From sequence record OL964735.1: a stretch of 64,000 bases of DNA. One strand, written 5' to 3'. How positions within the stretch are numbered: position 1 is the stretch's first letter; every line of letters starts with the position of its first letter. The notes under the pieces were generated by a model. It made no database searches. It worked only from the letters and a program-made list of their open reading frames with translations, and was not told where the DNA came from. The DNA comes from Escherichia phage T4. The translations under genes were made by a program, and so were the position numbers. Shown piece by piece: positions 16 through 63,486 of this stretch.

Positions 16-1995
16 ATGACTTTATTATCTCCGGGCATTGAGCTCAAAGAAACTACGGTTCAAAGCACCGTAGTTAATAACTCTACTGGTACAGCAGCTT
101 TGGCCGGTAAATTCCAGTGGGGTCCTGCTTTTCAGATTAAACAGGTTACAAATGAAGTAGATTTAGTTAATACTTTTGGTCAACCAACCGCTGAAACTGC
201 TGACTATTTTATGTCTGCGATGAATTTCTTGCAGTACGGAAATGACTTACGAGTAGTTCGTGCTGTTGATAGAGATACCGCTAAAAACTCATCGCCAATT
301 GCTGGTAATATTGAATACACAATTTCTACCCCAGGTAGTAGCTATGCGGTTGGAGATAAAATCACGGTCAAATATGTTTCAGATGATATTGAAACTGAAG
401 GTAAAATTACTGAAGTAGACGCAGATGGAAAAATTAAGAAAATTAATATTCCTACTGCAAAAATTATCGCTAAAGCGAAAGAAGTCGGTGAATATCCAAC
501 ACTAGGTTCTAACTGGACTGCGGAAATTTCTTCATCTTCCTCTGGTTTAGCTGCAGTAATAACTCTTGGAAAAATTATTACTGATTCTGGTATTTTATTA
601 GCTGAAATTGAAAATGCTGAAGCTGCTATGACAGCGGTTGACTTTCAAGCAAATCTTAAAAAATATGGAATTCCAGGAGTAGTAGCGCTTTATCCAGGCG
701 AATTAGGCGATAAAATTGAAATTGAAATCGTATCTAAAGCTGACTATGCAAAAGGAGCTTCTGCATTACTCCCAATTTATCCAGGTGGTGGTACTCGTGC
801 ATCTACTGCTAAAGCAGTGTTTGGATATGGACCGCAAACTGATTCACAGTACGCTATTATAGTTCGTCGTAATGATGCTATTGTTCAAAGCGTTGTTCTT
901 TCAACTAAGCGTGGTGAAAAAGATATTTACGATAGTAACATCTATATCGATGACTTTTTCGCAAAAGGTGGTTCAGAATATATTTTTGCAACTGCACAAA
1001 ACTGGCCAGAAGGCTTCTCTGGAATTTTAACTCTGTCTGGTGGATTATCATCAAATGCTGAAGTAACAGCAGGAGATTTGATGGAAGCTTGGGACTTCTT
1101 TGCTGACCGTGAATCTGTTGACGTTCAACTGTTTATTGCAGGTTCTTGTGCCGGTGAATCTTTAGAAACAGCATCTACTGTCCAAAAACACGTCGTTTCA
1201 ATTGGGGATGCTCGCCAAGATTGCTTAGTATTGTGCTCTCCTCCGCGTGAAACTGTAGTTGGAATTCCTGTAACCCGTGCTGTTGATAACTTAGTCAATT
1301 GGAGAACTGCGGCAGGTTCATACACTGATAATAACTTTAATATCAGTTCAACCTATGCAGCAATTGATGGTAACTATAAGTATCAGTATGACAAATATAA
1401 TGATGTGAATCGTTGGGTTCCATTAGCAGCTGATATTGCTGGTTTATGCGCAAGAACTGATAACGTATCTCAGACTTGGATGTCTCCAGCTGGTTATAAT
1501 CGTGGTCAGATTCTTAACGTTATTAAACTTGCTATTGAAACTCGCCAGGCTCAGCGCGACCGTTTATACCAAGAAGCTATCAACCCGGTAACCGGTACAG
1601 GTGGTGATGGTTACGTATTGTATGGTGATAAAACAGCTACTTCTGTTCCTTCTCCATTTGATCGTATTAACGTTCGTCGTCTGTTTAATATGTTGAAAAC
1701 GAATATCGGACGTAGTTCAAAATATCGTTTGTTCGAATTAAACAACGCGTTTACTCGTTCATCATTCCGCACAGAAACTGCCCAGTACTTACAGGGAATT
1801 AAAGCTCTCGGTGGAATTTATGAATATCGTGTAGTTTGCGATACAACAAATAACACTCCGTCAGTAATTGATAGAAATGAGTTTGTTGCAACATTCTACA
1901 TCCAACCGGCTAGAAGCATTAACTACATTACCTTAAACTTCGTAGCAACTGCTACTGGTGCAGATTTCGATGAGTTAACTGGTCTTGCTGGTTAA
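16..1995 (+). CDS. 18: tail sheath protein (T4 gp18)
   Basis: 659-aa ORF; sequence and length match recalled T4 gp18; GAGGA RBS at 5-9. Confidence 0.95.
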   Translation: MTLLSPGIELKETTVQSTVVNNSTGTAALAGKFQWGPAFQIKQVTNEVDLVNTFGQPTAETADYFMSAMNFLQYGNDLRVVRAVDRDTAKNSSPIAGNIEYTISTPGSSYAVGDKITVKYVSDDIETEGKITEVDADGKIKKINIPTAKIIAKAKEVGEYPTLGSNWTAEISSSSSGLAAVITLGKIITDSGILLAEIENAEAAMTAVDFQANLKKYGIPGVVALYPGELGDKIEIEIVSKADYAKGASALLPIYPGGGTRASTAKAVFGYGPQTDSQYAIIVRRNDAIVQSVVLSTKRGEKDIYDSNIYIDDFFAKGGSEYIFATAQNWPEGFSGILTLSGGLSSNAEVTAGDLMEAWDFFADRESVDVQLFIAGSCAGESLETASTVQKHVVSIGDARQDCLVLCSPPRETVVGIPVTRAVDNLVNWRTAAGSYTDNNFNISSTYAAIDGNYKYQYDKYNDVNRWVPLAADIAGLCARTDNVSQTWMSPAGYNRGQILNVIKLAIETRQAQRDRLYQEAINPVTGTGGDGYVLYGDKTATSVPSPFDRINVRRLFNMLKTNIGRSSKYRLFELNNAFTRSSFRTETAQYLQGIKALGGIYEYRVVCDTTNNTPSVIDRNEFVATFYIQPARSINYITLNFVATATGADFDELTGLAG

Positions 1996-8039: not shown

Positions 8040-8714
8040 CTATTTTATACGATAGCAATCAGGCATATCATCCGCATTTATCCAATTGCGAATAGTTTTA
8101 GGACTAACTTTAAAATGCTCCGCTGCGTAATCAGGATTATCAAATTTAACGCCCTTTATACATATTGGAATAAATTTTTTAATACCACCAAGTTTTTCAG
8201 AAATAGCTTTACGATGTGAAATCGATATAGGTTTGTTTTTTCGTGGATGAACATGTGTTTTATAATATTCATTGCGCCCTTTAACTCGCTTCGCAATAGT
8301 TTCATCAGATTGCTTAACGCCTGTTTTTGCCTTTGATATTTTTCGTTTAGCTTCCACAGTCATTCCTTCTTTTGTTCGTATTGATAACATATTACGATAT
8401 GAAGGATCTTGCAAATGAACTATAACTGGATTTCCTCTGCCACCAATAGCAGCATTATAGGTATCAGTTCTCATAACGAATTCCTCATTAACTAGTAAAG
8501 CTTCCATTTTATACATCTCCTCAGATGAGGAGAAAGAATAAAGAATTTCTTTTTTAAAGTTATGAATACCATATTTTTTGATGGATTTTTTGATGTTTAC
8601 GCCAGAACCCATATAACCATCGTTTTCGTCAAGAGTAGCATGAGCTCCGATGTAAATTTTTCCATTGATGATATTAGTAATTTGATATATTAAATATTTC
8701 ATTTTAAACATCAC
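8040..8714 (-). CDS. segD: GIY-YIG homing endonuclease-like protein (SegD-like)
   Basis: 224-aa ORF with N-terminal YLIYQITN...NGKIYIGA GIY-YIG motif; sits between genes 23 and 24 on opposite strand. Confidence 0.8.
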   Translation of the reverse strand: MMFKMKYLIYQITNIINGKIYIGAHATLDENDGYMGSGVNIKKSIKKYGIHNFKKEILYSFSSSEEMYKMEALLVNEEFVMRTDTYNAAIGGRGNPVIVHLQDPSYRNMLSIRTKEGMTVEAKRKISKAKTGVKQSDETIAKRVKGRNEYYKTHVHPRKNKPISISHRKAISEKLGGIKKFIPICIKGVKFDNPDYAAEHFKVSPKTIRNWINADDMPDCYRIK

Positions 8715-13568: not shown

Positions 13569-14186
13569 ATGTACCACTTTGTATATGAAACAACAAATCT
13601 AATAAATGGTAAAAAGTATATAGGAAAGCACTCTACTGATGACTTGAATGATGGTTACCTTGGTTCCGGTAAGGCAATTCAGCAGGCTATAAAGAAATAT
13701 GGTGAAAACAATTTCTCTAGAACAATACTAAAAGAGTTTAAAACTTCCGAAGAAGCGTACATGTATGAAGAAGAAATTATAACTCCTGAACTAATAAAAA
13801 GCAAAAATTATTATAATATGAAACCTGGTGGAATTGGTGGAATTGTTATGACTACAGATGTTATAGCAAAGATGAAAGAATCTTCCGCTAAAAGATTTGA
13901 AAACTCACCGGGCACGGTATTAGGTAAAACTTGTTATACTAATGGAACTAAAAATATTTTTATTAAACCTGGAGAACTTGTTCCAGAAGGATTTGTAAAA
14001 GGGATGGTTCATCCTAATAGAAAGTCCAGAAAAGGATGTAAAGTCAAACCGACTACCACAGGAACTTTTTGGGTCAATAATGGCGCAATAAATAAATTAA
14101 TACAACCAGACGGTATTATTCCCGACGGATTTATTAAAGGTCGTCTCATGAAAAGAGATTCTAAAGGCAAATTTAGTAAGGCATAA
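13569..14186 (+). CDS. segE: GIY-YIG homing endonuclease SegE
   Basis: 205-aa ORF; N-terminal MYHFVYETTNLINGKKYIGK GIY-YIG motif. Confidence 0.88.
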   Translation: MYHFVYETTNLINGKKYIGKHSTDDLNDGYLGSGKAIQQAIKKYGENNFSRTILKEFKTSEEAYMYEEEIITPELIKSKNYYNMKPGGIGGIVMTTDVIAKMKESSAKRFENSPGTVLGKTCYTNGTKNIFIKPGELVPEGFVKGMVHPNRKSRKGCKVKPTTTGTFWVNNGAINKLIQPDGIIPDGFIKGRLMKRDSKGKFSKA

Positions 14187-34816: not shown

Positions 34817-35026
34817 CTATAATATCACAACTCTACCGTAAAGTAAACCATTAAATCGCTTTGAATTCCGCAGTTTGAGATTCAAATCTGGAAGCAAAGT
34901 GTTCAATACATGAGTCACTTGAGCATGGATTCGAAGCTCAGCTGCGTTATCAAGTTTTTCAAACATATTATTAGCGATAATTTGGCTAAACACTACTTCT
35001 ACGATTTTAGAGTAAGTCGGAAACAT
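34817..35026 (-). CDS. hypothetical protein (cd.3 position)
   Basis: 69-aa ORF. Confidence 0.55.
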   Translation of the reverse strand: MFPTYSKIVEVVFSQIIANNMFEKLDNAAELRIHAQVTHVLNTLLPDLNLKLRNSKRFNGLLYGRVVIL

Positions 35027-35028
35027 AT

Positions 35029-35221
35029 TTACCTCACATAATTTTCTTCAAGCCAATCAATAACATCCAACGCATTATCAAAAGTTGAACCATCTACTCT
35101 GTCTTCTGTTTCATAATCAAGAACATCTAGGCCTACTCTTCCGTCAACAATAGGCCATAGACAAAATAGATATTTCTTTTCTTTTTCAATTTTATCACAA
35201 AGACGATAAATCTTTTCTAGG

Positions 35222-35229
<8 letters not shown>
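35029..35229 (-). CDS. hypothetical protein (cd.4 position)
   Basis: 66-aa ORF. Confidence 0.55.
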
Positions 35230-36548
<1,319 letters not shown>

Positions 36549-36552
<4 letters not shown>

Positions 36553-36848
36553 TTACATTTATCCTCTTTTAGCTCTTGACGATAATAACATATCATAGTT
36601 TTCTGGTCATGTACATATCGTTTTACATCATTAAGCCAAATACGAAATTCCTGAGAATCTTCAAATGGCATACCGACCCAGGCTTTACCATCAATAACTT
36701 TAACTTGCCAAGATAGTTTAGCTTCATCATATGACTTTATTTGCACAGGCCAATTAGGATGAACTGTTTCTTTCTTTACTTCTAGAGGCTTTGTCGAACA
36801 ACCAACTAGAAGACCAATAGATAATATTACTGCTGATAGTTTAATCAT
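36549..36848 (-). CDS. putative lipoprotein (pseT.2 position)
   Basis: 99-aa ORF; signal peptide ending in lipobox-like LVGC. Confidence 0.6.
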
Positions 36849-37198
36849 TTAGAAAGGTCCTGGATGTCTTCTGCGAACTTGTTGAAGGAGTTGTTGATTT
36901 GTTTTTCAACCAATCCTGGCTTATGAGCCACCACATCCGCCTTCTTTGCATCTTTGCGCAGTTTTTCATTTTCACGCTCAATAGCAGCAATTGCCTCACG
37001 ATTTTTATTATTCATCGCATCAATATAATTATACTGAATTCGCAAATTATTTAATGCTAAGGCGTTTTCATTGGCCGTTTTTGTAATTTCAGTAACTGAT
37101 GTTTCTAATCTTTCTACCTTATGTTTTAAAATAATAGATGTTCCGCCAAATGCTATTACAAGTAATAGCAATCCAGCTGTAAAATTACTTACATGCAT
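36845..37198 (-). CDS. putative membrane-anchored protein (pseT.3 position)
   Basis: 117-aa ORF with N-terminal hydrophobic helix. Confidence 0.6.
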   Translation of the reverse strand: MHVSNFTAGLLLLVIAFGGTSIILKHKVERLETSVTEITKTANENALALNNLRIQYNYIDAMNNKNREAIAAIERENEKLRKDAKKADVVAHKPGLVEKQINNSFNKFAEDIQDLSK

Positions 37199-37695
37199 AA
37201 AGTTTTAATAACCTCTACAATATCGTCTTGAGAAAGACCGTTAATTAAAATATGATGTTCAGCTGGAGATTTAGAAATTTTAAAGCATGCCTCAACATCT
37301 TCTGCCATATCCGATGCACTACGATTTGGATTACTAATACCAAGGCGATGTTTTCCCGTCAAAGGATTAACGATGATATAGCATTTGCAGCTATTGATAT
37401 GAACATTGGGTTGAGTCTGATTAATGAACACTTCACAATCATACTTAGCAAGTTGATTTTCTAAAAAGACTTTCATCTCTTCAACCGCATCAGGAAGCAT
37501 ATCACGGGCTTGCTCAAGACGACGATTTCGATATTCTTTAATGGTCGTTTTCCGCTTGACTTGCTTAGCTAAATCTTTCTTAAGATCAGTGATATATCCA
37601 ACTCGACGATTTCCTTTGAATACAGAAATCCCATCTGTAGTATCACCGTATGCTTCAACGACCATTTCAGTAGTAATAAGTTGTAAATCCATCAT
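37189..37695 (-). CDS. alc: Alc, inhibitor of host transcription on cytosine DNA
   Basis: 168-aa ORF (two consecutive ATGs); downstream of early promoter cassette. Confidence 0.88.
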   Translation of the reverse strand: MMDLQLITTEMVVEAYGDTTDGISVFKGNRRVGYITDLKKDLAKQVKRKTTIKEYRNRRLEQARDMLPDAVEEMKVFLENQLAKYDCEVFINQTQPNVHINSCKCYIIVNPLTGKHRLGISNPNRSASDMAEDVEACFKISKSPAEHHILINGLSQDDIVEVIKTLCM

Positions 37696-37699
37696 AAAG

Positions 37700-37753
37700 T
37701 CCTCATGTTATGTCAGTAAGACTACTATAACACAACACGAGGGACTTGTAAAC
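37700..37753. repeat. 54-bp promoter/RBS cassette, copy 2 (pairs with 24558-24611)
   Basis: 53 of 54 identical to copy 1. Confidence 0.85.
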
Positions 37754-37754
37754 A
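37717..37754 (-). promoter_or_regulatory. early promoter for alc (GTTTACA -35, 17-nt spacer, TGTTATAGT)
   Basis: identical motifs to the promoter at 24575-24612. Confidence 0.6.
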
Positions 37755-37756
37755 AC

Positions 37757-39344
<1,588 letters not shown>

Positions 39345-39371
39345 AATAAAATGGGCCTTGCGGCCCACTCC

Positions 39372-39874
39372 TTAAAAGTATTTTTTAAAACTCATCATAA
39401 CTTTATCATCAACATCATTATCAATCTGTGCAACAAGGTAAGATGACAGTTCTACTTCTTGCGGCGCGGATTGAACATTATCAGAATTAAGATATTCACG
39501 AATCCAAGGATATGGATGTTTAACCGGAGCATCGGTAATTGGGCATGGAAGACCGCACTGTTTCATACGAGATACAGTTAAGTAATCAATAAAGCTCCAC
39601 ATGCTATTTGTATTTAATCCAGGAACATCACCATCTTTAAATAAATGAACTGCCCAGTCTTTTTCCTGGCGGTTAACTTCCATGAAAATATCAACTGCTT
39701 CTTGTTCACACTCTTGGGCAATTTTAACCCATTCATCACCATCAGTACCGGATTGAAGTTGACGAATAATATATTGGGTGCCTTTAAGGTGAAGCTGTTC
39801 ATCACGTGCAATGAACTTCATAATCTTGGCATTACCTTCCATGATTTCCATGTTCTTATGGAAGTTAAAGGTAC
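39372..39874 (-). CDS. nrdB: ribonucleotide reductase small subunit NrdB, exon 2
   Basis: exon boundary inferred from frame, intron ending in G, and restoration of conserved YVSFACTFNF...MEGNAK sequence. Confidence 0.88.
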
Positions 39875-40472
39875 CGTATGTTCGATTGAGCTCGCTAATT
39901 CTCAACCCGTTCTCTTATGAACTGCTGCATGTTACCATGCAGTCCAGACTATATCACAATCCCGGAGGGATTCTCCCCATTTCGAGTCGCTTGACCCTAC
40001 GTCCGAAGACTAGTCGTTGAACCTTGTTTTGCAATTGTCGCCGTGCCATCGTTTATATGTTGATGGTGATAAATCTTTCTTATCACAATATGGACAATTC
40101 AATTGAATTCTATTTGGATTTAATTTACATCTGTCATTATGTTTTAGATAAAATCCAGGACCTTTACCAATGTGACCACAGAAATCACATGTGATTTCTT
40201 TTTGTGCAGGATGGGTCCCGTTCTTAACCATTTCTAATGTTTTTGCTGATGTTCTTTTCTTATGTTCTTCCATCAGAATCTTTAGGTATAGGTCCGTTAG
40301 CATCTATCCAAATTTTTCTATAGTTCAATTGTGCATCCTCTTAAAAGTATAATCATATTTATATTATACTAATTAAAGGTGCAAGCAAAACCTTGGCTGC
40401 TAGTTTTCCATAAAGGACTTTCCAGCAATTAAAGGAGTTTTCGATAAACGTTACCGTTTAAAGGCGCATTTT
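39875..40472 (-). mobile_element. group I intron in nrdB (598 nt) with degenerate homing endonuclease ORF
   Basis: in-frame stop directly after exon 1 U; core shared with td intron (TTTCGAGTC.CTTGACCCTAC); intron ends in G. Confidence 0.85.
40010..40303 (-). CDS. truncated intron-encoded endonuclease (I-TevIII remnant)
   Basis: 97-aa ORF inside intron with CxxC/HxxC zinc-finger-like motifs only; no catalytic domain. Confidence 0.75.
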   Translation of the reverse strand: MLTDLYLKILMEEHKKRTSAKTLEMVKNGTHPAQKEITCDFCGHIGKGPGFYLKHNDRCKLNPNRIQLNCPYCDKKDLSPSTYKRWHGDNCKTRFND

Positions 40473-41136
40473 ACGCAAAAGATACATAAAAACGAATAGC
40501 TTCTAAGGCATTAATAACGTGCAAACAGAGGTAAAGAGATTTCATCAGATCTCGTTTAGCTCTTTGCTCAACGTCTTTATCAGCTAGAATTAGACCTTGG
40601 TCTTTATAATATTCAACCATGTCTTTAGCATTTTCCCATTCACGGGTTTTAACCAAGACATCATCGTAATATCGCCCAATGGACTCAGCACGTTTCATAA
40701 TAGCTTCATCTAATACAATCTCATCAAACACCTTCGATGGATCAGTATAAAGATTTCGCATGATATGAGTATATGAACGACTGTGAATAGTTTCACTAAA
40801 AGTCCATGTAGCAACCCATGTATCAAGGCTTGGGTCTGAAATTAATGACATAAGTACAGCAGATGGCGCACGACCCTGAATGCTATCCAAAAGTGATTGA
40901 TACTTCAGGTTGTTAGTAAAAATATTTTGCTGATACTGAGGAAGCTTATTAAATTGCGCAGCATCCATCATTAAGTTTACTTCTTCAGGACGCCAAAAAA
41001 AACTGATCTGCCGCTCAATGAGTTCTTCAAATACTCGATGTCGTTGAATATCATATCGAGCTAAACCTAATCCAGAACCAAAGAACATCGGTTCATTCAA
41101 AACATCAACTGGATTTGTATTAAAAACTGTACTCAT
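40473..41136 (-). CDS. nrdB: ribonucleotide reductase small subunit NrdB, exon 1
   Basis: exon 1 plus exon 2 total 1167 nt = 388 aa plus stop. Confidence 0.88.
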
Positions 41137-41831
41137 TTAGAATCCTTAAATTTACATTTATCATAATGCCATCTTAAAGCATTGCCTTTATTAACTTTCT
41201 TACCACAGTGCGGGCAAGGTGGATACTCTGCTCCTTGTTTAGTTCTCAAAGAAATCAAATCACGGGTTTCTTTAGTATGAGGAACATCTCTTGTCGGAGA
41301 AATTGTACCATACATCGGATTAAGCACGCCGACTTTAGCAGCAGCTATATTCTTTTTAGCTTCTTCAGTTTTAGGCTTTCTCATCTTTTTCTTAGTTTCT
41401 TCGCTTTTAGCCCTTCCTTTGGTTGCCGCCGATATTTTGTGTTTGGTTTCTTCTGTTAAACGCAGACCTGTTTTCGCTTTTGACATTTTCAGTCTCGTTT
41501 CTTCAGAAATGACCGTACCTTTGCGAAATTGCGAATTTAACTTCTTTGCATGGGCATATATTTTAGAATGAACTTTATAATGACGTTTCTTAGTTCCTTT
41601 CATATTGCACATCATGAAAAATGCGAATATAACAGATTTTACCGGATAAATCTTTGATAAAATAGCATGCGCTATAAAATGCTCTCTAGCTGTTAATTCA
41701 ACTAAATTTTCTTTATCATCAGAACCTCCCATGCATCTAGGGATTATATGATGTGTCTCTTTATATTCGGATAAAGGTTCCCGAGCCTGAGCTCGGGAAA
41801 TTAGGTCGTTATAGATTTTTTGATAATTCAT
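41133..41831 (-). CDS. mobE: HNH homing endonuclease-like protein MobE
   Basis: 232-aa ORF; HHIIPRCMGGSDDKENLVELTAREH HNH motif; wedged between nrdA and nrdB with overlapping start/stop. Confidence 0.85.
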   Translation of the reverse strand: MNYQKIYNDLISRAQAREPLSEYKETHHIIPRCMGGSDDKENLVELTAREHFIAHAILSKIYPVKSVIFAFFMMCNMKGTKKRHYKVHSKIYAHAKKLNSQFRKGTVISEETRLKMSKAKTGLRLTEETKHKISAATKGRAKSEETKKKMRKPKTEEAKKNIAAAKVGVLNPMYGTISPTRDVPHTKETRDLISLRTKQGAEYPPCPHCGKKVNKGNALRWHYDKCKFKDSK

Positions 41832-44095
41832 TACAATTTACACGCTGCACAATCATCGGCTTTAGGAGTTTCTATTTCATAATCATCAGTACCAGAACCA
41901 TCACGGGTATTATGATAATAGAAATTTTTAATGCCATAATACCATCCGTATAGCATGTCATCAATCATTATTGACATTGGAACCTTTCCTTTTGGAAAAA
42001 TCTGCGGGTCATAATATGTATTCGCTGAAGCTGATTGACATACCCATTTCAGCATAATAGCTACCTGCGTAAGATAAGGTTTATTACCTTTCTTAGCTAA
42101 TTTCCATGTATAATCATAGAGGTCTATGTTATGCTCAATATTGGGCACGACTTGATTAAAGGAACCCTCTTTTGATTCTTTAACACTTACCGGTCCACGT
42201 GGAGGCTCGATGCCGTTTGTACTGTTAGAAACTTGGGAAGATGACTCACATGGCATAAGTGCTGATAATGTGCTATTACGGATGCCAAATAGCTTAAGGT
42301 CTTCCCGCAGCGCCGACCAGTCACAAACGTATTTTGGAGCTGCGATTTGGTCAATCTTTTTATTGTACCAGTCGATAGGTAATTCGCCTCGAGACCAACG
42401 AGTGTCTGAATAATATTCGCAAGGTCCTTTTTCTTTGGCGAGCTTAATGGATGCTTTAATGAGTCCATACTGTAATCTCTCAAATAGTTCATGTGTTAAA
42501 TCGTTAGCATCTTCATAAGAAGCAAAGTTACTTGCCAGCCAAGCTGCATAGTTGGTAACACCTACACCGAGGTTACGACGCTTTTTAGCTTTTTCTGCTT
42601 CAGGAACCGGATATCCTTGGTAATCCAACAGATTATCAAGAGCACGAACTTGAACTTCTGCCAATTCATTAATTTTATCTTGGTCTTGCCAGTCAAAATT
42701 ATCTAATACGAATGCAGAGAGAGTACACAATCCAATTTCAGCATCAGGGCTATTCACATCATTTGTTGGAATAGCAATTTCACAGCACAAGTTACTCTGA
42801 CGAATAGGTGCCTTTTCACGAATAAACGGAGTATAGTTATTCGTATTATCAATGAACTGCACATAAATCCTTGCTGTTCCTGAACGTTCAGTCATGAGCA
42901 ATTCAAATAGTTCACGGGCTTTAATACGCTTTTTACGAATATTAGGGTCTTTTTCTGCTGCTTCGTATAATTCACGGAAACGGTCTTGGTCTTTAAAATA
43001 AGAATAATAAAGCTCGCCACCCATTTCATGCGGACTGAACAAAGTAATGTAATCGTTTTTTCCAAAACGTTCCATCATCAAATCATTCAGTTGAACACCA
43101 TAATCCATATGACGAATGCGGTTTTCTTCTACGCCTTTGTTATTTTTCAAAACGAGAAGATTTTCAACTTCCAAATGCCAAATAGGATAATAAGCAGTAG
43201 CAGCGCCGCCACGAATTCCACCCTGTGAACATGATTTAACTGCAGTCTGAAAATGTTTCCAAAAAGGAATAACACCAGTATGGCGTACTTCACCCATGCC
43301 AATCTTAGAACCTTCGGCACGAATCATACCAACGTTAATACCAATTCCAGCGCGTTTAGAGATATATTCAACAATTGAAGCAGAAGCCTTATTGATAGAC
43401 TTCAATGAATCTCCTGCCTCAATAACAACACATGAACTAAACTGTCGAGTCGGAGTACGACAACCAGCCATAATAGGAGTTGGCAATGAAATCTGTCGAG
43501 TAGATACTGCTTCATAAAAACGGATAACATGTTTTAATCTATCAACAGGTTCATCTTGATGCAGTGCCATTCCAATAGTCATAAATGCAAACTGTGGAGT
43601 TTCATAAATTTGACCAGTGGTTTTATCTTTAACTAGATATTTTTCTTTTAATTGCATTGCCCCGGAATAAGTAAATTCCATATCCCGTTCGTGCTTAATT
43701 TTTGATTCTAAAAATGTAATTTCTTCTGCTGAATATTTTGACAATAATTCAGGGTCGTATTTACCTGCATTTACACAATAAGAAATATGGTCAATAAATG
43801 AACGTGGTTCATACTGCCCATAAACATGCTTACGAAGAGCAAACATTAAACAGCGTGCAGCTACATATTGATAATCAGGTTCTTCAACCGAAATAGAATT
43901 CGCAGCAGCCTTAATGACAATAGTCTGAATATCATCAGTTGTCATTCCATCACGGAGATAAGATTTAATATTTTCATATAATTCATAAGGATCTACTGAT
44001 GTTCCTTCAGCTGCCCAAGATAAAACTTTAATAATTTTTTGTGGGTCAAAGCTCTGAGAAACACCACTACTTTTGATAACATTAATTAATTGCAT
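41831..44095 (-). CDS. nrdA: ribonucleotide reductase large subunit NrdA
   Basis: 754-aa ORF. Confidence 0.96.
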   Translation of the reverse strand: MQLINVIKSSGVSQSFDPQKIIKVLSWAAEGTSVDPYELYENIKSYLRDGMTTDDIQTIVIKAAANSISVEEPDYQYVAARCLMFALRKHVYGQYEPRSFIDHISYCVNAGKYDPELLSKYSAEEITFLESKIKHERDMEFTYSGAMQLKEKYLVKDKTTGQIYETPQFAFMTIGMALHQDEPVDRLKHVIRFYEAVSTRQISLPTPIMAGCRTPTRQFSSCVVIEAGDSLKSINKASASIVEYISKRAGIGINVGMIRAEGSKIGMGEVRHTGVIPFWKHFQTAVKSCSQGGIRGGAATAYYPIWHLEVENLLVLKNNKGVEENRIRHMDYGVQLNDLMMERFGKNDYITLFSPHEMGGELYYSYFKDQDRFRELYEAAEKDPNIRKKRIKARELFELLMTERSGTARIYVQFIDNTNNYTPFIREKAPIRQSNLCCEIAIPTNDVNSPDAEIGLCTLSAFVLDNFDWQDQDKINELAEVQVRALDNLLDYQGYPVPEAEKAKKRRNLGVGVTNYAAWLASNFASYEDANDLTHELFERLQYGLIKASIKLAKEKGPCEYYSDTRWSRGELPIDWYNKKIDQIAAPKYVCDWSALREDLKLFGIRNSTLSALMPCESSSQVSNSTNGIEPPRGPVSVKESKEGSFNQVVPNIEHNIDLYDYTWKLAKKGNKPYLTQVAIMLKWVCQSASANTYYDPQIFPKGKVPMSIMIDDMLYGWYYGIKNFYYHNTRDGSGTDDYEIETPKADDCAACKL

Positions 44096-44412
44096 AAGTC
44101 CTCAACTTGAAAATCGTCTTTAAACAATCGGTTAACTATATGAGCTATTATATCACCATGACACGGCTTTGGTTTACATGTGCATCCTAGCCTCATTCCA
44201 CGTAAAGGCTCTAAATGTGCTTTAGTTATTTCTCCGGATTTAATTCGACGTATAAAATCTTTTTTGAATAATTCAATGGCAGCCTCCCGGCTGCCAGCAT
44301 CTTTACCGACGTAATTTCCCCAAAATGTACCGCGGTGAATATTAACATCAAAGTCGGATTTATATTTATTCACTACCCGGCATAGACGGCCCACGCTGGA
44401 ATAATTCGTCAT
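44086..44412 (-). CDS. hypothetical protein (nrdA.1 position)
   Basis: 108-aa ORF overlapping nrdA start by 10 nt. Confidence 0.6.
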
Positions 44413-44641
44413 ATTGTTTTTCCGTTAAAACAGTAATATCGTAGTAACAGTCAGAAGAAGTTTTAACTGTGGAAATTTTATTATCAAAATACTCACGAGT
44501 CATTTTATGAGTATAGTATTTTTTACCATAAATGGTAATAGGCTGTTCTGGTCCTGGAACTTCTAACTCGCTTGGGTTAGGAAGTGTAAAAAGAACTACA
44601 CCAGAAGTATCTTTAAATCGTAAAATCATATATCCTCGCAA
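44366..44641 (-). CDS. hypothetical protein (nrdA.2 position)
   Basis: 91-aa ORF. Confidence 0.6.
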
Positions 44642-44649
44642 TAATAAAA

Positions 44650-44961
44650 TTACACCGCCATCTTTCCTTTAATAGGAGGGTGTGATACATAGTTGTTAAG
44701 AACGAAATCTTTAGGCCTAAGTTTAAGAACATATTTTAATTGTTCTTTAGTAGAAAGATATCGGAATTTATAAGGTAGACCACTTATTACCAGCTCACAA
44801 AGCTCTTTAGGTTCACGCCTCAAAATTTCTTTACATTGTTCTACGTGATTCATATAGATATGAGTATTACCACCAGAAAATATCAAATCCCCTGGAATAA
44901 GATTACACATCTTAGCTACAATATGAACTAACGTAGCATATGACGCAATATTAAACGGTAG
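44650..44961 (-). CDS. td: thymidylate synthase, exon 2
   Basis: exon starts at Leu codon after intron terminal G (44962); junction VDVFLG|LPFNIASYA. Confidence 0.93.
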
Positions 44962-45977
44962 CATTATGTTCAGATAAGGTCGTTAATCTTACCCCGGAAT
45001 TATATCCAGCTGCATGTCACCATGCAGAGCAGACTATATCTCCAACTTGTTAAAGCAAGTTGTCTATCGTTTCGAGTCACTTGACCCTACTCCCCAAAGG
45101 GATAGTCGTTAGGCATTTATGTAGAACCAATTCCATTTATCAGATTTTACACGATAAGTAACTAATCCAGACGAAATTTTAAAATGTCTAGCTGCATCTG
45201 CTGCACAATCAAAAATAACCCCATCACATGAAATCTTTTTAATATTACTAGGCTTTTTACCTTTCATCTTTTCTGATATTTTAGATTTAGTTATGTCTGA
45301 ATGCTTATGATTAAAGAATGAATTATTTTCACCTGAACGATTTCTGCATTTACTACAAGTATAAGCAGAAGTTTGTATGCGAACACCGCACTTACAAAAC
45401 TTATGGGTTTCTGGATTCCAACGCCCGTTTTTACTTCCGGGTTTACTGTAAAGAGCTTTCCGACCATCAGGTCCAAGTTTAAGCATCTTAGCTTTAACAG
45501 TTTCAGAACGTTTCTTAATAATTTCTTCTTTTAATGGATGCGTAGAACATGTATCACCAAACGTTGCATCAGCAATATTGTATCCATTAATTTTAGAATT
45601 AAGCTCTTTAATCCAAAAATTTTCTCGTTCAATAATCAAATCTTTCTCATATGGAATTTCTTCCAAAATAGAACATTCAAACACATTACCATGTTTGTTA
45701 AAAGACCTCTGAAGTTTTATAGAAGAATGGCATCCTTTTTCTAAATCTTTAAAATGCCTCTTCCATCTCTTTTCAAAATCTTTAGCACTTCCTACATATA
45801 CTTTATTGTTTAAAGTATTTTTAATCTGATAAATTCCGCTTTTCATAAATACCTCTTTAAATATAGAAGTATTTATTAAAGGGCAGTCCTACAATTTAGC
45901 ACGGGATTGTCTACTAGAGAGGTTCCCCGTTTAGATAGATTACAAGTATAAGTCACCTTATACTCAGGCCTCAATTA
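44962..45977 (-). mobile_element. group I intron in td (1016 nt) carrying I-TevI
   Basis: intron begins UAAUUGAGGCCUGAG immediately after exon 1 GGU and ends in G; contains GIY-YIG ORF. Confidence 0.93.
45109..45846 (-). CDS. intron-encoded GIY-YIG homing endonuclease I-TevI
   Basis: 245-aa ORF starting MKSGIYQIKN...KVYVGSA. Confidence 0.95.
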   Translation of the reverse strand: MKSGIYQIKNTLNNKVYVGSAKDFEKRWKRHFKDLEKGCHSSIKLQRSFNKHGNVFECSILEEIPYEKDLIIERENFWIKELNSKINGYNIADATFGDTCSTHPLKEEIIKKRSETVKAKMLKLGPDGRKALYSKPGSKNGRWNPETHKFCKCGVRIQTSAYTCSKCRNRSGENNSFFNHKHSDITKSKISEKMKGKKPSNIKKISCDGVIFDCAADAARHFKISSGLVTYRVKSDKWNWFYINA

Positions 45978-47119
<1,142 letters not shown>

Positions 47120-47175
47120 TTAATTGAAAACGAATGCTTACTTGGATAATTTCAATGACATACATAATATTTTCC

Positions 47176-47418
47176 TCAAACAGACTTTTTCACAATTTTC
47201 CAATCAGCTTTAAACTGCTCGACGTCAGAATGGTAAATCCAAAATCCTGCGCTTTCTCCGTCTTCATAAAGAGGACATCCATCGCATTCATCTTCCCATC
47301 CCATATCACGTAAAAGATGTTCAGCTTTTTCAACAAGTTCAGAATCTTTACCGATGATATTAAAATACCATTTACCTCTAACTTCTGAATCTTTGATGCT
47401 CTGGCGTTGTAATCTCAT
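47176..47418 (-). CDS. hypothetical protein (frd.1 position)
   Basis: 80-aa ORF. Confidence 0.6.
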   Translation of the reverse strand: MRLQRQSIKDSEVRGKWYFNIIGKDSELVEKAEHLLRDMGWEDECDGCPLYEDGESAGFWIYHSDVEQFKADWKIVKKSV

Positions 47419-47524
47419 TTTATTCTCCTTAGCAAGCTTTAATCAAAAGATATAAACAGACCAACATAACTGCTGCCATAATATAAGGTGCGAACATTTT
47501 CTTTTCTCCATTAGTTTTGATAGG

Positions 47525-47558
47525 GTAATAGTATCACACTACTACCCTGATGTAAACT
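47525..47558 (-). promoter_or_regulatory. early promoter (GTTTACA, 17-nt spacer, TACTAT)
   Basis: minus strand motifs overlapping the frd.2-position ORF stop. Confidence 0.45.
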
Positions 47559-47958
47559 ACTTTTTGAAAGTTTTTCGCAAAAGTTCAATGATTTCATCTA
47601 CATTGTTTTCGTCAACAATGCAGTGAATTTTTGTTACGCCAGAAACCTTGTCTTTGACTTCATCTTCTTCAGAAGTCGGTTCTTTATATTCGCGGAAACA
47701 ATAAAACTCTTCTTCACTAAGTTCAAAATAATCATCACCCATACCATCATCATTATAGATTTCACCATTAGCACAAATGATTTCGGTTACATAATCAAAG
47801 CCATCTAAACTTGATATTGATTTAACTTCAAACCAACCGCCATTTTCTTGAATGATGCCGACCATACTAGCATTTGATGAACTAATATCAATGAAAGATT
47901 TAATACGATGTGGATTTAACTCGTATTTTTTGCCGATTTCCATTTTGATTTTCCTCAT
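47557..47958 (-). CDS. hypothetical protein (frd.2 position)
   Basis: 133-aa ORF. Confidence 0.6.
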   Translation of the reverse strand: MRKIKMEIGKKYELNPHRIKSFIDISSSNASMVGIIQENGGWFEVKSISSLDGFDYVTEIICANGEIYNDDGMGDDYFELSEEEFYCFREYKEPTSEEDEVKDKVSGVTKIHCIVDENNVDEIIELLRKTFKK

Positions 47959-47988
47959 TTTAATAGGGGCTTGATAGCCCCTTGATAA

Positions 47989-48216
47989 TTATTGTTCAAT
48001 CAGTCCCATGTAAAATTCTGCGTCTTCAGAATCCATGCCATCACAATATTCATTAGCCATAAAGCGGGTGAGGTCTTCAAGAGGACCTTCAATAACGATT
48101 TGAATACTCCAAAACTTAGAATCTTGCACGCTTGTGATACTAAGTTCAGGATAACGATTACGAATAATCTCTTCAATATATTCAAAATCAACGATGTCAA
48201 TATCAACTTTAGCCAT
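47989..48216 (-). CDS. hypothetical protein (frd.3 position)
   Basis: 75-aa ORF. Confidence 0.55.
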
Positions 48217-48254
48217 ATTATTTTCCTCTTTAATTATTAGCAGTATTGCCGATA

Positions 48255-48291
48255 GTTGTATAGTACCATAAAGCTTTATGCTTGTAAACCG
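48255..48291 (-). promoter_or_regulatory. early promoter (GTTTACA, 17-nt spacer, TACTAT)
   Basis: minus strand motifs about 40 nt upstream of the frd.3-position ORF. Confidence 0.5.
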
Positions 48292-48310
48292 TTTTGTGAA
48301 AAAATTTTTA

Positions 48311-48339
48311 AAATAAAAAAGGGGACCTCTAGGGTCCCC
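48311..48339 (-). terminator. intrinsic terminator after gene 32
   Basis: minus strand GGGGACC-CTAGA-GGTCCCC hairpin followed by TTTTTTATTTT. Confidence 0.75.
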
Positions 48340-48361
48340 AATTAATTAGTAATATAATCTA

Positions 48362-49267
48362 TTAAAGGTCATTCAAAAGGTCATCCAGGTCCGTGTCATC
48401 AGCACTAGATGAACTACCAGAGCTTGAGCTCATAAAATCATCTTCAGTTTTTGTATTGAAGTCATCAACATTGAATGCATCCAAATCATCAGCAACTTTA
48501 TCAGCTTTCTTAGCAGCAGTTGCAGCAGCACCGCCCATCACAGCAGTTCCCATAACTTGACCGAATTTAGTATTAAGTTCTTCAAACGATTTGAATTTAT
48601 CTTTAGAAGTCATTTCAGAAAGGTCAACCATTTGTTCGAACAGTTCTTTCTGGAAAGATTCATCGTCAATGTTTGGAATCGCAGATTGATTCAGGAATTT
48701 AGATTCATCGTAGTTACTAAATCCAGAAACTTGTTTAACTTTCAGTACAAAGTTAGCACCTTCCCACGGACAAGTTACATCAACTGGAGTTTCACCCATT
48801 TCAACATCAACCGCAATCATTGCATTGATTTTATCCCAGATTTTCTTACCGAAACGGTATTTAAATACTTTACCTTCGTTTTCTGGAGCAGCTGGGTCTT
48901 TTACTACAAGAATGTTAGCCCAGTAAGAAGTTTTACGTTTAACAAGACTGTACTCTTTATTGTCAGTGTTGTATAGATCATTTTTACTGATGTATTGACA
49001 TACTGGGCAAGAATCGTAATCACCATGGGTAGATGAACATGTTTCAATATACCATTTACCATTTTTCTTGAAACCGTGATTTACAAGAATTGCGAATGGT
49101 GCTTGTTCATCATTTTTAGACGGAAGAAAACGAATTACTGCTTGACCGTTACCCGCATTATCGAGTTTCAGTTTCCACTCGCCTTTATCTTCAGAAGAAA
49201 AACCTTTATTGCCATTCAGTTTAGCCATTTGTGCAGCGAGTTCAGCAGTAGATTTACGTTTAAACAT
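48362..49267 (-). CDS. 32: single-stranded DNA-binding protein (T4 gp32)
   Basis: 301-aa ORF; zinc site H...CPVC; acidic C-terminal tail. Confidence 0.96.
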
Positions 49268-49337
49268 TTTTATTTCCTTTTTAATTTAATTTAATTAACA
49301 GTTGGTGCTATGACACTTTACCTCATAGCTGGCATAA
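49268..49337 (-). promoter_or_regulatory. gene 32 autoregulatory translational operator (AU-rich tract plus upstream pseudoknot-forming hairpin)
   Basis: mRNA-sense leader GCUAUGAGGUAAAGUGUCAUAGC then UUAAUUAAAUUAAAUUAAAAAGGAAAUAAAAAUG. Confidence 0.7.
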
Positions 49338-49955
49338 TTCGCAATACTCTGGGTCTTCGAGAGGTATCCAACCTGAGTTGAAATACTTTACCATCGATTT
49401 AGCAGTTGTATCAGTTATATTTATATTACCTTTAACTCTTCGCCATCCAGGAGTTTTACCGTACAGATTAGAGGATAATAATAACACATAATTCTCGTAA
49501 GCAATATGAGATAATTTCCAAGACTCTATATTAGCTCGTGATGTTTTCCAAGGTCTAAAATCGTCACGGTTCATATAATTAGCCAATCTCATATGCTCTC
49601 TAACTTCCGGGTCTTTGGCTGGATGAGTTTCACCACTCACACCAAATCCACCACCAGCATATACCAGATTAAAATAGTCTGGATTATCTCTGGCATTTAC
49701 TTCAAGTTGGTATTTTCGTTCTGCTTCAATAACATCCAAGTCATCATCAATTTGAATTATTTTAACGCTCGGTTTTTGAAGCATTAGCGCATTCAAAAAT
49801 CTTTTTTGTTTACATGAGCTCCAGTATTCCTTTCCGGAAGAGTCATATATTATTCCGTTCTCAAATGAGCAATTTAATTTACTACCGATATAGTAGTATG
49901 GCGGAGTCTTATTTTTGACACGGTCTTCAAATGTAAACCAATATACTATATTCAT
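49323..49955 (-). CDS. segG: GIY-YIG-like homing endonuclease (SegG-like)
   Basis: 210-aa ORF; N-terminal IVYWFTF...PPYYYIGSK; inserted between genes 32 and 59. Confidence 0.8.
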   Translation of the reverse strand: MNIVYWFTFEDRVKNKTPPYYYIGSKLNCSFENGIIYDSSGKEYWSSCKQKRFLNALMLQKPSVKIIQIDDDLDVIEAERKYQLEVNARDNPDYFNLVYAGGGFGVSGETHPAKDPEVREHMRLANYMNRDDFRPWKTSRANIESWKLSHIAYENYVLLLSSNLYGKTPGWRRVKGNINITDTTAKSMVKYFNSGWIPLEDPEYCELCQL

Positions 49956-49956
49956 A

Positions 49957-50610
49957 TCAATACTTGCAAGATTTCACAGTTTCAATGAAAACATTTTTAG
50001 CTTTCTGTGAATCAATATTTAAAATTTTTCTATAAGCCTTTAACTTTATAGAATAATTATTCCAGACTAAATTATCAGTCTGTTCATCATGTTTATCAAT
50101 TATATTTAAAAACGAATCAAGCAAGATAAACGTCTCAAACGAAATTATGTTCGATTGCAGAAGTTTAAAAATATAACTTGATTGAACTTTTGGATTATAC
50201 TCAAAAATTTCTTTAAAAGCAGAAACTTCAACTTTTTTACTAAAATAATAAATGTTGCGAATATCTTCTTCAAACTTAAATTTAATTTGCTTTAAGCGTC
50301 CGATATATTCACGATAAAACACAAGTGCATCAGCGTCAGAGATGTCACCAATCCAAGCATCTTGGTTAGCAACCAAATTGCTTATAAAGATTAAAGCAAG
50401 TTCCTTTAATTTATATTTTTCTGATAACTTCTGGAAAAAATACTTATCCCTTCGCTTTTGATAAGCGGCATCAGACACCCGCATGCACCAATTATACTTA
50501 ATTACATCATACTTTCCATTCATATGTTGTTTTATCATTAAGTATAATTTATAAACTGATTTACCATCAATGTATCTTTCACCACCAGCAGGCATGCGGA
50601 GTTTAATCAT
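49957..50610 (-). CDS. 59: helicase loader (T4 gp59)
   Basis: 217-aa ORF. Confidence 0.92.
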   Translation of the reverse strand: MIKLRMPAGGERYIDGKSVYKLYLMIKQHMNGKYDVIKYNWCMRVSDAAYQKRRDKYFFQKLSEKYKLKELALIFISNLVANQDAWIGDISDADALVFYREYIGRLKQIKFKFEEDIRNIYYFSKKVEVSAFKEIFEYNPKVQSSYIFKLLQSNIISFETFILLDSFLNIIDKHDEQTDNLVWNNYSIKLKAYRKILNIDSQKAKNVFIETVKSCKY

Positions 50611-57955: not shown

Positions 57956-60900
57956 ATGGCTACTTTAAAACAAATACAATTTAAAAGAAGCAAAATCGCA
58001 GGAACACGTCCTGCTGCTTCAGTATTAGCCGAAGGTGAATTGGCTATAAACTTAAAAGATAGAACAATTTTTACTAAAGATGATTCAGGAAATATCATCG
58101 ATCTAGGTTTTGCTAAAGGCGGGCAAGTTGATGGCAACGTTACTATTAACGGACTTTTGAGATTAAATGGCGATTATGTACAAACAGGTGGAATGACTGT
58201 AAACGGACCCATTGGTTCTACTGATGGCGTCACTGCAAAAATTTTCAGATCTACACAGGGTTCATTTTATGCAAGAGCAACAAACGATACTTCAAATGCC
58301 CATTTATGGTTTGAAAATGCCGATGGCACTGAACGTGGCGTTATATATGCTCGCCCTCAAACTACAACTGACGGTGAAATACGCCTTAGGGTTAGACAAG
58401 GAACAGGAAGCACTGCCAACAGTGAATTCTATTTCCGCTCTATAAATGGAGGCGAATTTCAGGCTAACCGTATTTTAGCATCAGATTCGTTAGTAACAAA
58501 ACGCATTGCGGTTGATACCGTTATTCATGATGCCAAAGCATTTGGACAATATGATTCTCACTCTTTGGTTAATTATGTTTATCCTGGAACCGGTGAAACA
58601 AATGGTGTAAACTATCTTCGTAAAGTTCGCGCTAAGTCCGGTGGTACAATTTATCATGAAATTGTTACTGCACAAACAGGCCTGGCTGATGAAGTTTCTT
58701 GGTGGTCTGGTGATACACCAGTATTTAAACTATACGGTATTCGTGACGATGGCAGAATGATTATCCGTAATAGCCTTGCATTAGGTACATTCACTACAAA
58801 TTTCCCGTCTAGTGATTATGGCAACGTCGGTGTAATGGGCGATAAGTATCTTGTTCTCGGCGACACTGTAACTGGCTTGTCATACAAAAAAACTGGTGTA
58901 TTTGATCTAGTTGGCGGTGGATATTCTGTTGCTTCTATTACTCCTGACAGTTTCCGTAGTACTCGTAAAGGTATATTTGGTCGTTCTGAGGACCAAGGCG
59001 CAACTTGGATAATGCCTGGTACAAATGCTGCTCTCTTGTCTGTTCAAACACAAGCTGATAATAACAATGCTGGAGACGGACAAACCCATATCGGGTACAA
59101 TGCTGGCGGTAAAATGAACCACTATTTCCGTGGTACAGGTCAGATGAATATCAATACCCAACAAGGTATGGAAATTAACCCGGGTATTTTGAAATTGGTA
59201 ACTGGCTCTAATAATGTACAATTTTACGCTGACGGAACTATTTCTTCCATTCAACCTATTAAATTAGATAACGAGATATTTTTAACTAAATCTAATAATA
59301 CTGCGGGTCTTAAATTTGGAGCTCCTAGCCAAGTTGATGGCACAAGGACTATCCAATGGAACGGTGGTACTCGCGAAGGACAGAATAAAAACTATGTGAT
59401 TATTAAAGCATGGGGTAACTCATTTAATGCCACTGGTGATAGATCTCGCGAAACGGTTTTCCAAGTATCAGATAGTCAAGGATATTATTTTTATGCTCAT
59501 CGTAAAGCTCCAACCGGCGACGAAACTATTGGACGTATTGAAGCTCAATTTGCTGGGGATGTTTATGCTAAAGGTATTATTGCCAACGGAAATTTTAGAG
59601 TTGTTGGATCAAGCGCTTTAGCCGGCAATGTTACTATGTCTAACGGTTTGTTTGTCCAAGGTGGTTCTTCTATTACTGGACAAGTTAAAATTGGCGGAAC
59701 AGCAAACGCACTGAGAATTTGGAACGCTGAATATGGTGCTATTTTCCGTCGTTCGGAAAGTAACTTTTATATTATTCCAACCAATCAAAATGAAGGAGAA
59801 AGTGGAGACATTCACAGCTCTTTGAGACCTGTGAGAATAGGATTAAACGATGGCATGGTTGGGTTAGGAAGAGATTCTTTTATAGTAGATCAAAATAATG
59901 CTTTAACTACGATAAACAGTAACTCTCGCATTAATGCCAACTTTAGAATGCAATTGGGGCAGTCGGCATACATTGATGCAGAATGTACTGATGCTGTTCG
60001 CCCGGCGGGTGCAGGTTCATTTGCTTCCCAGAATAATGAAGACGTCCGTGCGCCGTTCTATATGAATATTGATAGAACTGATGCTAGTGCATATGTTCCT
60101 ATTTTGAAACAACGTTATGTTCAAGGCAATGGCTGCTATTCATTAGGGACTTTAATTAATAATGGTAATTTCCGAGTTCATTACCATGGCGGCGGAGATA
60201 ACGGTTCTACAGGTCCACAGACTGCTGATTTTGGATGGGAATTTATTAAAAACGGTGATTTTATTTCACCTCGCGATTTAATAGCAGGCAAAGTCAGATT
60301 TGATAGAACTGGTAATATCACTGGTGGTTCTGGTAATTTTGCTAACTTAAACAGTACAATTGAATCACTTAAAACTGATATCATGTCGAGTTACCCAATT
60401 GGTGCTCCGATTCCTTGGCCGAGTGATTCAGTTCCTGCTGGATTTGCTTTGATGGAAGGTCAGACCTTTGATAAGTCCGCATATCCAAAGTTAGCTGTTG
60501 CATATCCTAGCGGTGTTATTCCAGATATGCGCGGGCAAACTATCAAGGGTAAACCAAGTGGTCGTGCTGTTTTGAGCGCTGAGGCAGATGGTGTTAAGGC
60601 TCATAGCCATAGTGCATCGGCTTCAAGTACTGACTTAGGTACTAAAACCACATCAAGCTTTGACTATGGTACGAAGGGAACTAACAGTACGGGTGGACAC
60701 ACTCACTCTGGTAGTGGTTCTACTAGCACAAATGGTGAGCACAGCCACTACATCGAGGCATGGAATGGTACTGGTGTAGGTGGTAATAAGATGTCATCAT
60801 ATGCCATATCATACAGGGCGGGTGGGAGTAACACTAATGCAGCAGGGAACCACAGTCACACTTTCTCTTTTGGGACTAGCAGTGCTGGCGACCATTCCCA

Positions 60901-63307: not shown

Positions 63308-63486
63308 ATTGAATCACCTTCAGTTGACGTTTTAACTCTTTTATCATCTCTTCGTTCATCGCAATATAAAGATCGCGTAGAGCAGGTTTTAGCATTCCAT
63401 TTACTGGAGAACTAAATGGACATACATAATCTTTTCCTACTGGATTTGATTCATAATTCCATCAATTTGAAACTTTTTAATATTCA

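Follow-up and report, generated by a model that had tools for sequence, protein, structure and literature searches.

Within the 64-kb stretch of DNA analysed here (the window), the thymidylate synthase gene td is interrupted by a segment that holds an open reading frame of its own, and the question raised by this locus is whether the interruption is a spliced and still mobile group I intron and, if so, whether it is one already known. A first-pass annotation had called it the td group I intron, carrying the homing endonuclease I-TevI. Group I splicing and phage homing have long been studied with the T4 td intron as a model, and among the GIY-YIG homing endonucleases of the T-even phages none is better characterised than I-TevI (PMC2988022). 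It is practically certain, with no result obtained here to the contrary, that the feature described below is the td intron of bacteriophage T4, a group I (IA2) ribozyme that splices itself and has the I-TevI gene in its P6a loop. As such it is a textbook archetype, already known and characterised, and its novelty is nil. The td case is instead of value as a positive control, in which the intron boundaries can be called to the base from raw sequence.

Layout of the locus and its splice boundaries

The td intron lies on the minus strand of the 64-kb window, and all readings of the locus given here follow that strand (Table 1). Exon 1, running from 46526 to 45978, closes with GATGTTTTCTTGGGT, and the intron opens at 45977 with TAATTGAGGCCTGAG in its short form and TAATTGAGGCCTGAGTATAA in a longer reading. 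At its other end the intron reads CTGAACATAATG, finishing in ...ATAATG, and its terminal base, at window 44962 and directly before exon 2, is the guanosine (omega G) that marks the end of a group I intron. Exon 2 begins at 44961 with CTACCGTTTAATATT, its first codon being CTA (Leu). The computed translation of the joined exons gives 286 amino acids and a stop codon, and the unspliced frame meets a stop immediately, at intron bases 1-3 (UAA). The frame inside the intron, from 45846 to 45109, begins with MKSGIYQIKNTLNNKVYVGS.

The first-pass annotation had placed the end of exon 1 at GTT TTC TTG GGT, followed by the typical td intron 5' end, and the minus-strand readings from 46526..45978 and from 45977 both bear this out. 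Its intron length of 1016 nt with G as the last base is exact (45977..44962, ...ATAATG), as is its length of 245 amino acids for the embedded frame (45846..45109), and the resumption of exon 2 at a Leu codon to give a 286-aa product was recovered by translating the exon join. All of its coordinates and lengths are thus exact; the strand, minus, was absent from it.

Table 1. Coordinates of the td locus and of related features in the window
Feature	Coordinates	Strand	Extent and content
td exon 1	45978..46526	minus	549 nt, 183 codons; ends ...GTT TTC TTG GGT; same coordinates in the T4T joined CDS
CAACG (5'-CNNNG-3' motif)	46000..46004	minus	in exon 1, -27..-23 from the insertion site
P1	45963..45984	minus	exon 1 -7..-1 CUUGGGU (45984..45978) with guide nt 9-15 GCCUGAG (45969..45963)
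td group I intron (subgroup IA2)	44962..45977	minus	1016 nt; 5' UAAUUGAGGCCUGAG to AUAAUG 3'; from boundaries, helices, partial RF00028 match and T2 intronless allele
Ribozyme core, 5' half	45885..45962	minus	intron nt 16-93: P2 hairpin, P3 5' strand, P4, P5, P6 5' strand, P6a 5' strand
I-TevI control region	45845..45891	minus	intron nt 87-133: operator-like stretch, late-promoter-like motif, RBS hairpin
I-TevI ORF	45109..45846	minus	245 aa, intron nt 132-869; GIY-YIG catalytic domain, zinc finger, C-terminal DNA-binding domain
Ribozyme core, 3' half	44962..45128	minus	intron nt 850-1016: P6a', P6', P7, P7.1, P7.2, P3', P8, P7', P9, P9.1, P9.2, terminal G
td exon 2	44650..44961	minus	103 codons and stop; starts CUA CCG UUU; 1TIS and PF00303 continuous across the junction
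nrdB group I intron	within 39372..41136	minus	carries truncated H-N-H endonuclease I-TevIII, 40010..40303
segD	~8040-8711		homing-endonuclease gene, T4T annotation transferred
segE	~13569-14186		homing-endonuclease gene, T4T annotation transferred
I-TevIII	40010-40303		homing-endonuclease gene, T4T annotation transferred
mobE	~41133-41831		homing-endonuclease gene, T4T annotation transferred
segG	~49323-49955		homing-endonuclease gene, T4T annotation transferred

Identity with the phage T4 element

The locus is matched at 100% over 2001 nt (window 44600-46600) by 11 phage records, namely nine of T4 or T4T together with RB55 and RB59. The original 1986 deposit, M12742, aligns over its full 2162 nt to window 44579..46740 with 0 mismatches and 0 gaps, and window 34887..50000 is likewise free of mismatches and gaps against T4T (HM137666.1), whose sequence from 98600 onward coincides with the window coordinates from 34887. 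No base difference from M12742 or T4T was found within 44650..46526. This full identity to deposited T4 sequence means that the td intron pattern is not a chance one. The T4T annotation gives td as a joined CDS at 44650..46526 and I-TevI at 45109..45846, exactly the window coordinates, and labels the latter 'DNA endonuclease encoded by group 1A intron in td; GIY-YIG family'. In the T4 records td is a two-piece joined CDS, and in the full genome records I-TevI is named inside it. This complete match to the T4 records and to M12742, together with the joined-CDS annotation, upholds the naming of the feature as the td group I intron. The element is none other than the published T4 td intron with I-TevI (M12742; T4T HM137666.1; NC_000866.4 T4p237, T4p238), and the boundaries, the 1016-nt intron, the 245-aa frame and the 286-aa enzyme all agree.

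The RefSeq genome differs at two places. In NC_000866.4 and AF158101.6 the intron has one extra T, reading GGACTTGCCC where the window has GGACTGCCC; the place is the top of P6a (window 45885/45886), and the RefSeq td intron is 1017 nt long as against 1016 nt in the window. The same two records show a TA/AT swap at 46433-46434, the sole difference found in exon 1; it falls in codon 32, which specifies T in the window and is S in PDB 1TIS. Since M12742 and the other 100%-matching T4 records side with the window at both positions, the extra T and the swap may be errors in the reference. The extra T lies at the P6a tip and within the operator-like stretch (intron nt 87-106). A reading of the difference as a real strain polymorphism that tunes I-TevI autorepression or the stability of P6a, and not as an old sequencing error in the reference, is considered very unlikely.

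The I-TevI endonuclease and the prospect of mobility

The predicted product of the intron frame is identical to I-TevI over residues 130-245 in PDB 1I3J and 1T2T, and its residues 1-97 agree with 1MK0 and 1LN0 at all but the engineered position, which in 1MK0 is E75. Three profiles cover its length, PF01541 (GIY-YIG) at residues 3-90 with 66.8 bits against a cut-off of 22.6, PF22635 (I-TevI zinc finger) at residues 149-179 with 73.4 bits, and PF20987 (I-TevI DNA-binding domain) at residues 192-242 with 110.5 bits, the last two also above their cut-offs. Residues Y6, Y17, R27, H31, H40, E75 and N90 are all present, as are the zinc-finger cysteines C151, C153, C164 and C167. The intact GIY-YIG N-terminus that had been claimed for this frame is thus confirmed by the retention of Y6, Y17, R27, E75 and N90, by the PF01541 match and by the correspondence with 1MK0 and 1LN0.

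An intron of this kind may nonetheless be present and immobile, decayed and with an inactive endonuclease, as is the nrdB intron of T4 with its truncated I-TevIII. That precedent lies 5 kb away in the same phage, I-TevIII being annotated there as truncated and defective (40010..40303), and homing endonuclease genes often decay once an intron has become fixed; the td frame, however, when inspected for inactivating mutations, proved to be full length at 245 aa, with its catalytic and zinc-finger residues all intact, and its sequence is that of I-TevI itself, an enzyme known from biochemical and structural work and listed as active in Table 1 of PMC2988022. An immobile td intron is therefore judged highly improbable. 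The earlier prediction that the intron is actively mobile agrees with the literature, in which I-TevI is entered as active (PMC2988022) and the td intron is stated to be mobile (PMC1865063); I-TevI drives homing via double-strand-break repair (PMC2988022; PMC1865063).

The two introns are alike in being group I introns within genes of nucleotide metabolism, in holding an endonuclease frame and in giving an RF00028 match below threshold. The nrdB intron differs in that its endonuclease is of the H-N-H type and is truncated and defective in T4 (T4T annotation), and the intron is immobile (PMC1865063).

Control of I-TevI expression

When the homing site was slid along the intron, nt 87-106 matched it at 14/20 positions, and an equal 14/20 match, attributable to chance, occurs inside the frame at intron nt 788. 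Because this chance site scores equally, sequence alone does not establish the operator. A late-promoter-like motif, AATAAATA, occupies intron nt 101-108 and overlaps the operator-like stretch, agreeing with TAWAAATA at 7/8 positions; the strict TAWAAATA late-promoter pattern gave no match. The GAGG ribosome-binding site and the start codon AUG lie buried in a hairpin that pairs intron nt 102-113 with nt 122-133, with -11.6 kcal/mol predicted on long leaders; on a leader starting at nt 112 the hairpin cannot form (0.0 kcal/mol). The operator, late promoter and ribosome-binding-site hairpin of the td intron have all been described, I-TevI being translated from late transcripts only and repressing its own late promoter at the operator, which is barely cut because it has no CXXXG motif at the right distance (PMC2988022).

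The ribozyme core

P1 pairs the end of exon 1 with the guide in 7/7 standard pairs, the last exon U standing opposite G9 as the U.G wobble at the 5' splice site. The remaining helices were tested by explicit complementarity, and complete pairing was obtained for P2 (6/6), P3 (6/6), P4 (6/6), P5 (3/3), P6 (2/2), P6a (9/9), P7 (6/6) and P8 (7/7), as well as for P9, P9.1 and P9.2. In intron numbering P2 joins nt 16-21 with 26-31, P3 joins 39-44 with 910-915, P4 joins 48-53 with 72-77 and P7 joins 871-876 with 941-946; P6 is of 2 bp only (78-79/864-865), and P6a joins 85-93 with 850-858. Also completely paired are P7.1 (CCC/GGG, nt 877-886) and P7.2 (GAGU/ACUC, nt 886-904). Such extra hairpins between P7 and P3' are characteristic of subgroup IA2, and the T4 annotation of the td intron reads 'group 1A intron'. 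The loop of P6a holds the I-TevI frame, whose last codons supply the 3' strands of both P6a and P6 and whose stop codon (intron nt 867-869) falls in J6/7. The same arrangement, with the 3' end of the frame inside the core, has been described, and the td intron self-splices (PMC2988022). Among the T-even phage copies listed, td introns are at least 97% identical.

Folding of a mini-intron from which the frame had been deleted gave -80.7 kcal/mol, compared with -67.6 +/- 5.0 kcal/mol for shuffled sequences, a modest z of -2.6. The unconstrained fold recovers P2-P6a, P7.1, P8, P9 and P9.1, and replaces P1 with a long-range alternative; P7 is missing from it because P3 and P7 form a pseudoknot. 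It was because this fold misses P7 and P1 that the helices were checked one by one for complementarity.

The Rfam scan of the whole 64-kb window at the gathering threshold returned 0 matches. With an E-value threshold on 44900-46050, RF00028 scored 40.3 bits (E 1.5e-8) against a gathering score of 50, with only the 3' core truly aligned, in the order GACUA... / CGAUAGACA / P8 / GAUAUAGUCU / P9. The score probably stays below the gathering score because the 738-nt frame separates the halves of the core, a gap of about 750 nt that the model cannot bridge. The 5' half of that alignment lies inside the 3' end of the frame, into which the model was forced, and was rejected as spurious; the other matches on 44900-46050 (snoR66, GIR1, group II D1D4 and others), with E of 0.3-7, were judged to be chance. 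The core of the nrdB intron gives a similar RF00028 match on the minus strand at 39925..40165 (35.7 bits, E 2.8e-7), also below the gathering score of 50. A standard Rfam scan at gathering threshold hence misses both of the ORF-bearing group I introns of the window.

The spliced product and the intronless alleles

The spliced 286-aa product is the T4 thymidylate synthase of PDB 1TIS over all 286 residues except T32/S32 (670.9 bits), and the match is uninterrupted across the junction, ...VFLG/LPFN.... On the same product PF00303 (Thymidylat_synt) spans residues 2-286 and profile positions 1-266 of 266 (E 2.7e-95); the profile is covered in full, so that splicing gives back a whole enzyme.

The td gene of T2 is a single uninterrupted 861-nt CDS with the junction ...CTTGGT/CTTCCATTT. 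Set against each other, T2 reads ...GTTTTTCTTGGT/CTTCCATTTAAT... and T4 reads ...GTTTTCTTGGGT(intron)CTACCGTTTAAT.... Only synonymous changes separate the two, and the point of joining is the same in both. A 245-nt probe of the spliced junction gave one unbroken match in T2 and in many other T-even phages. These intronless alleles are about 95% identical to the T4 gene around the junction and encode the same V-F-L-G-L-P-F peptide, but lack the intron, and their uninterrupted junction is the I-TevI homing site. Because about 402 records have a continuous td junction and about 195 contain most of the intron-bearing query, the td intron is polymorphic among close relatives, a pattern of presence and absence that is as expected for an intron predicted to be mobile. 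In intronless td I-TevI cuts at positions 23/25 nt upstream of the insertion site. The CAACG motif of exon 1 stands at this spacing and is also present in the T2 allele, and cleavage by I-TevI has a CXXXG requirement (PMC2988022).

These results bear equally on whether td is spliced at all. In principle a free-standing endonuclease cassette could divide the gene, which would then be expressed without RNA splicing as two polypeptides that assemble, an arrangement that the annotation of several relatives seems to imply, since they carry two 'thymidylate synthase' CDSs, td-A and td-B, on either side of the endonuclease; these labels, however, come from automatic gene callers. An in-frame UAA does close exon 1 and an ATG-started frame (44650..44964) does overlap exon 2, yet a complete group I core, with its U.G splice site, P1-P9.2 and terminal G, surrounds the endonuclease frame, the crystallised T4 enzyme is one 286-aa chain continuous across the junction, and the T2 gene, which lacks the intron, agrees with that junction to the base. 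The likelihood of a split td gene is accordingly regarded as negligible.

A model for splicing and homing

For td as a spliced gene with a mobile group I intron, the following course of events may be proposed, in which the sequence anatomy, the T4 identity, the intact proteins and the intronless allele come from the present analysis and the catalysis, regulation and homing are taken from the literature. The td pre-mRNA would be transcribed from the minus strand and its intron would fold into the P1-P9.2 core. Pairing of the exon 1 sequence CUUGGGU with the guide GCCUGAG would place the U.G pair at the 5' splice site, to be attacked by an external guanosine, and the freed exon 1 would then attack after the terminal G, so that GGU would be ligated to CUA in an mRNA for the 286-aa thymidylate synthase. 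On early and middle transcripts the hairpin that buries the ribosome-binding site would keep I-TevI silent. The endonuclease would be made late, from the promoter internal to the intron, and would repress this same promoter through the operator that resembles its homing site. When T4 and an intronless relative, for instance T2, infect the same cell, I-TevI would bind the uninterrupted td junction and cut it at CAACG, upstream of the insertion site by 23-25 bp, and double-strand-break repair would copy the intron into the cut allele.

Other features of the window and of related phages

The window departs from T4T elsewhere. An exact deletion of 100 bp relative to T4T HM137666.1 (bases 133386-133485) is found at 34886/34887, inside cd.3, where it causes a frameshift and shows no microhomology; this region measures 801 bp in the window and 901-902 bp in each of the 13 T4 records among the matches listed. 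The round number of its size suggests that the cd.3 deletion was engineered or arose in data processing and is not natural. Another deletion of exactly 100 bp, at 63440/63441 inside arn.2 and identified by comparison with T4T only (bases 162040-162139), is of the same character, with a frameshift, loss of the N-terminal part of the frame and 0-1 nt of junction homology. That the resemblance of the td region to T4 is itself a data artefact, arising from an edited or mis-assembled window as these two deletions elsewhere might lead one to fear, is next to inconceivable, given that 44579..46740 against M12742 and 34887..50000 against T4T both align with no mismatch and no gap.

Seven single-base differences from T4T are spread across the 64 kb. 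Those at 341, 6774, 9308 and 11932 fall in genes 18, 23, 24 and hoc, and those at 59205, 61662 and 61841 in the tail-fibre/lysis region (genes 37 and t).

Among the relatives, Yersinia phage PST (NC_027404.1) carries an additional 121-aa frame, 'ORF232', at 387..752 between frd and td, accounting for about 420 bp. In T4 frd and td overlap, whereas PST-like relatives have 'ORF232' between them. The roughly 420 extra bases of PST were considered as an intron variant and rejected, being a separate frame between the two genes. The td gene of PST-like phages is annotated as separate CDSs, td-A and td-B, and not as a spliced join.

The window is also dense in homing-endonuclease genes, with segD, segE, I-TevIII, mobE, I-TevI and segG placed by transfer of the T4T annotation (Table 1); before position 34887 the numbering is offset by +100 from that of the T4T locus. 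Of these genes, mobE sits between nrdA and nrdB.
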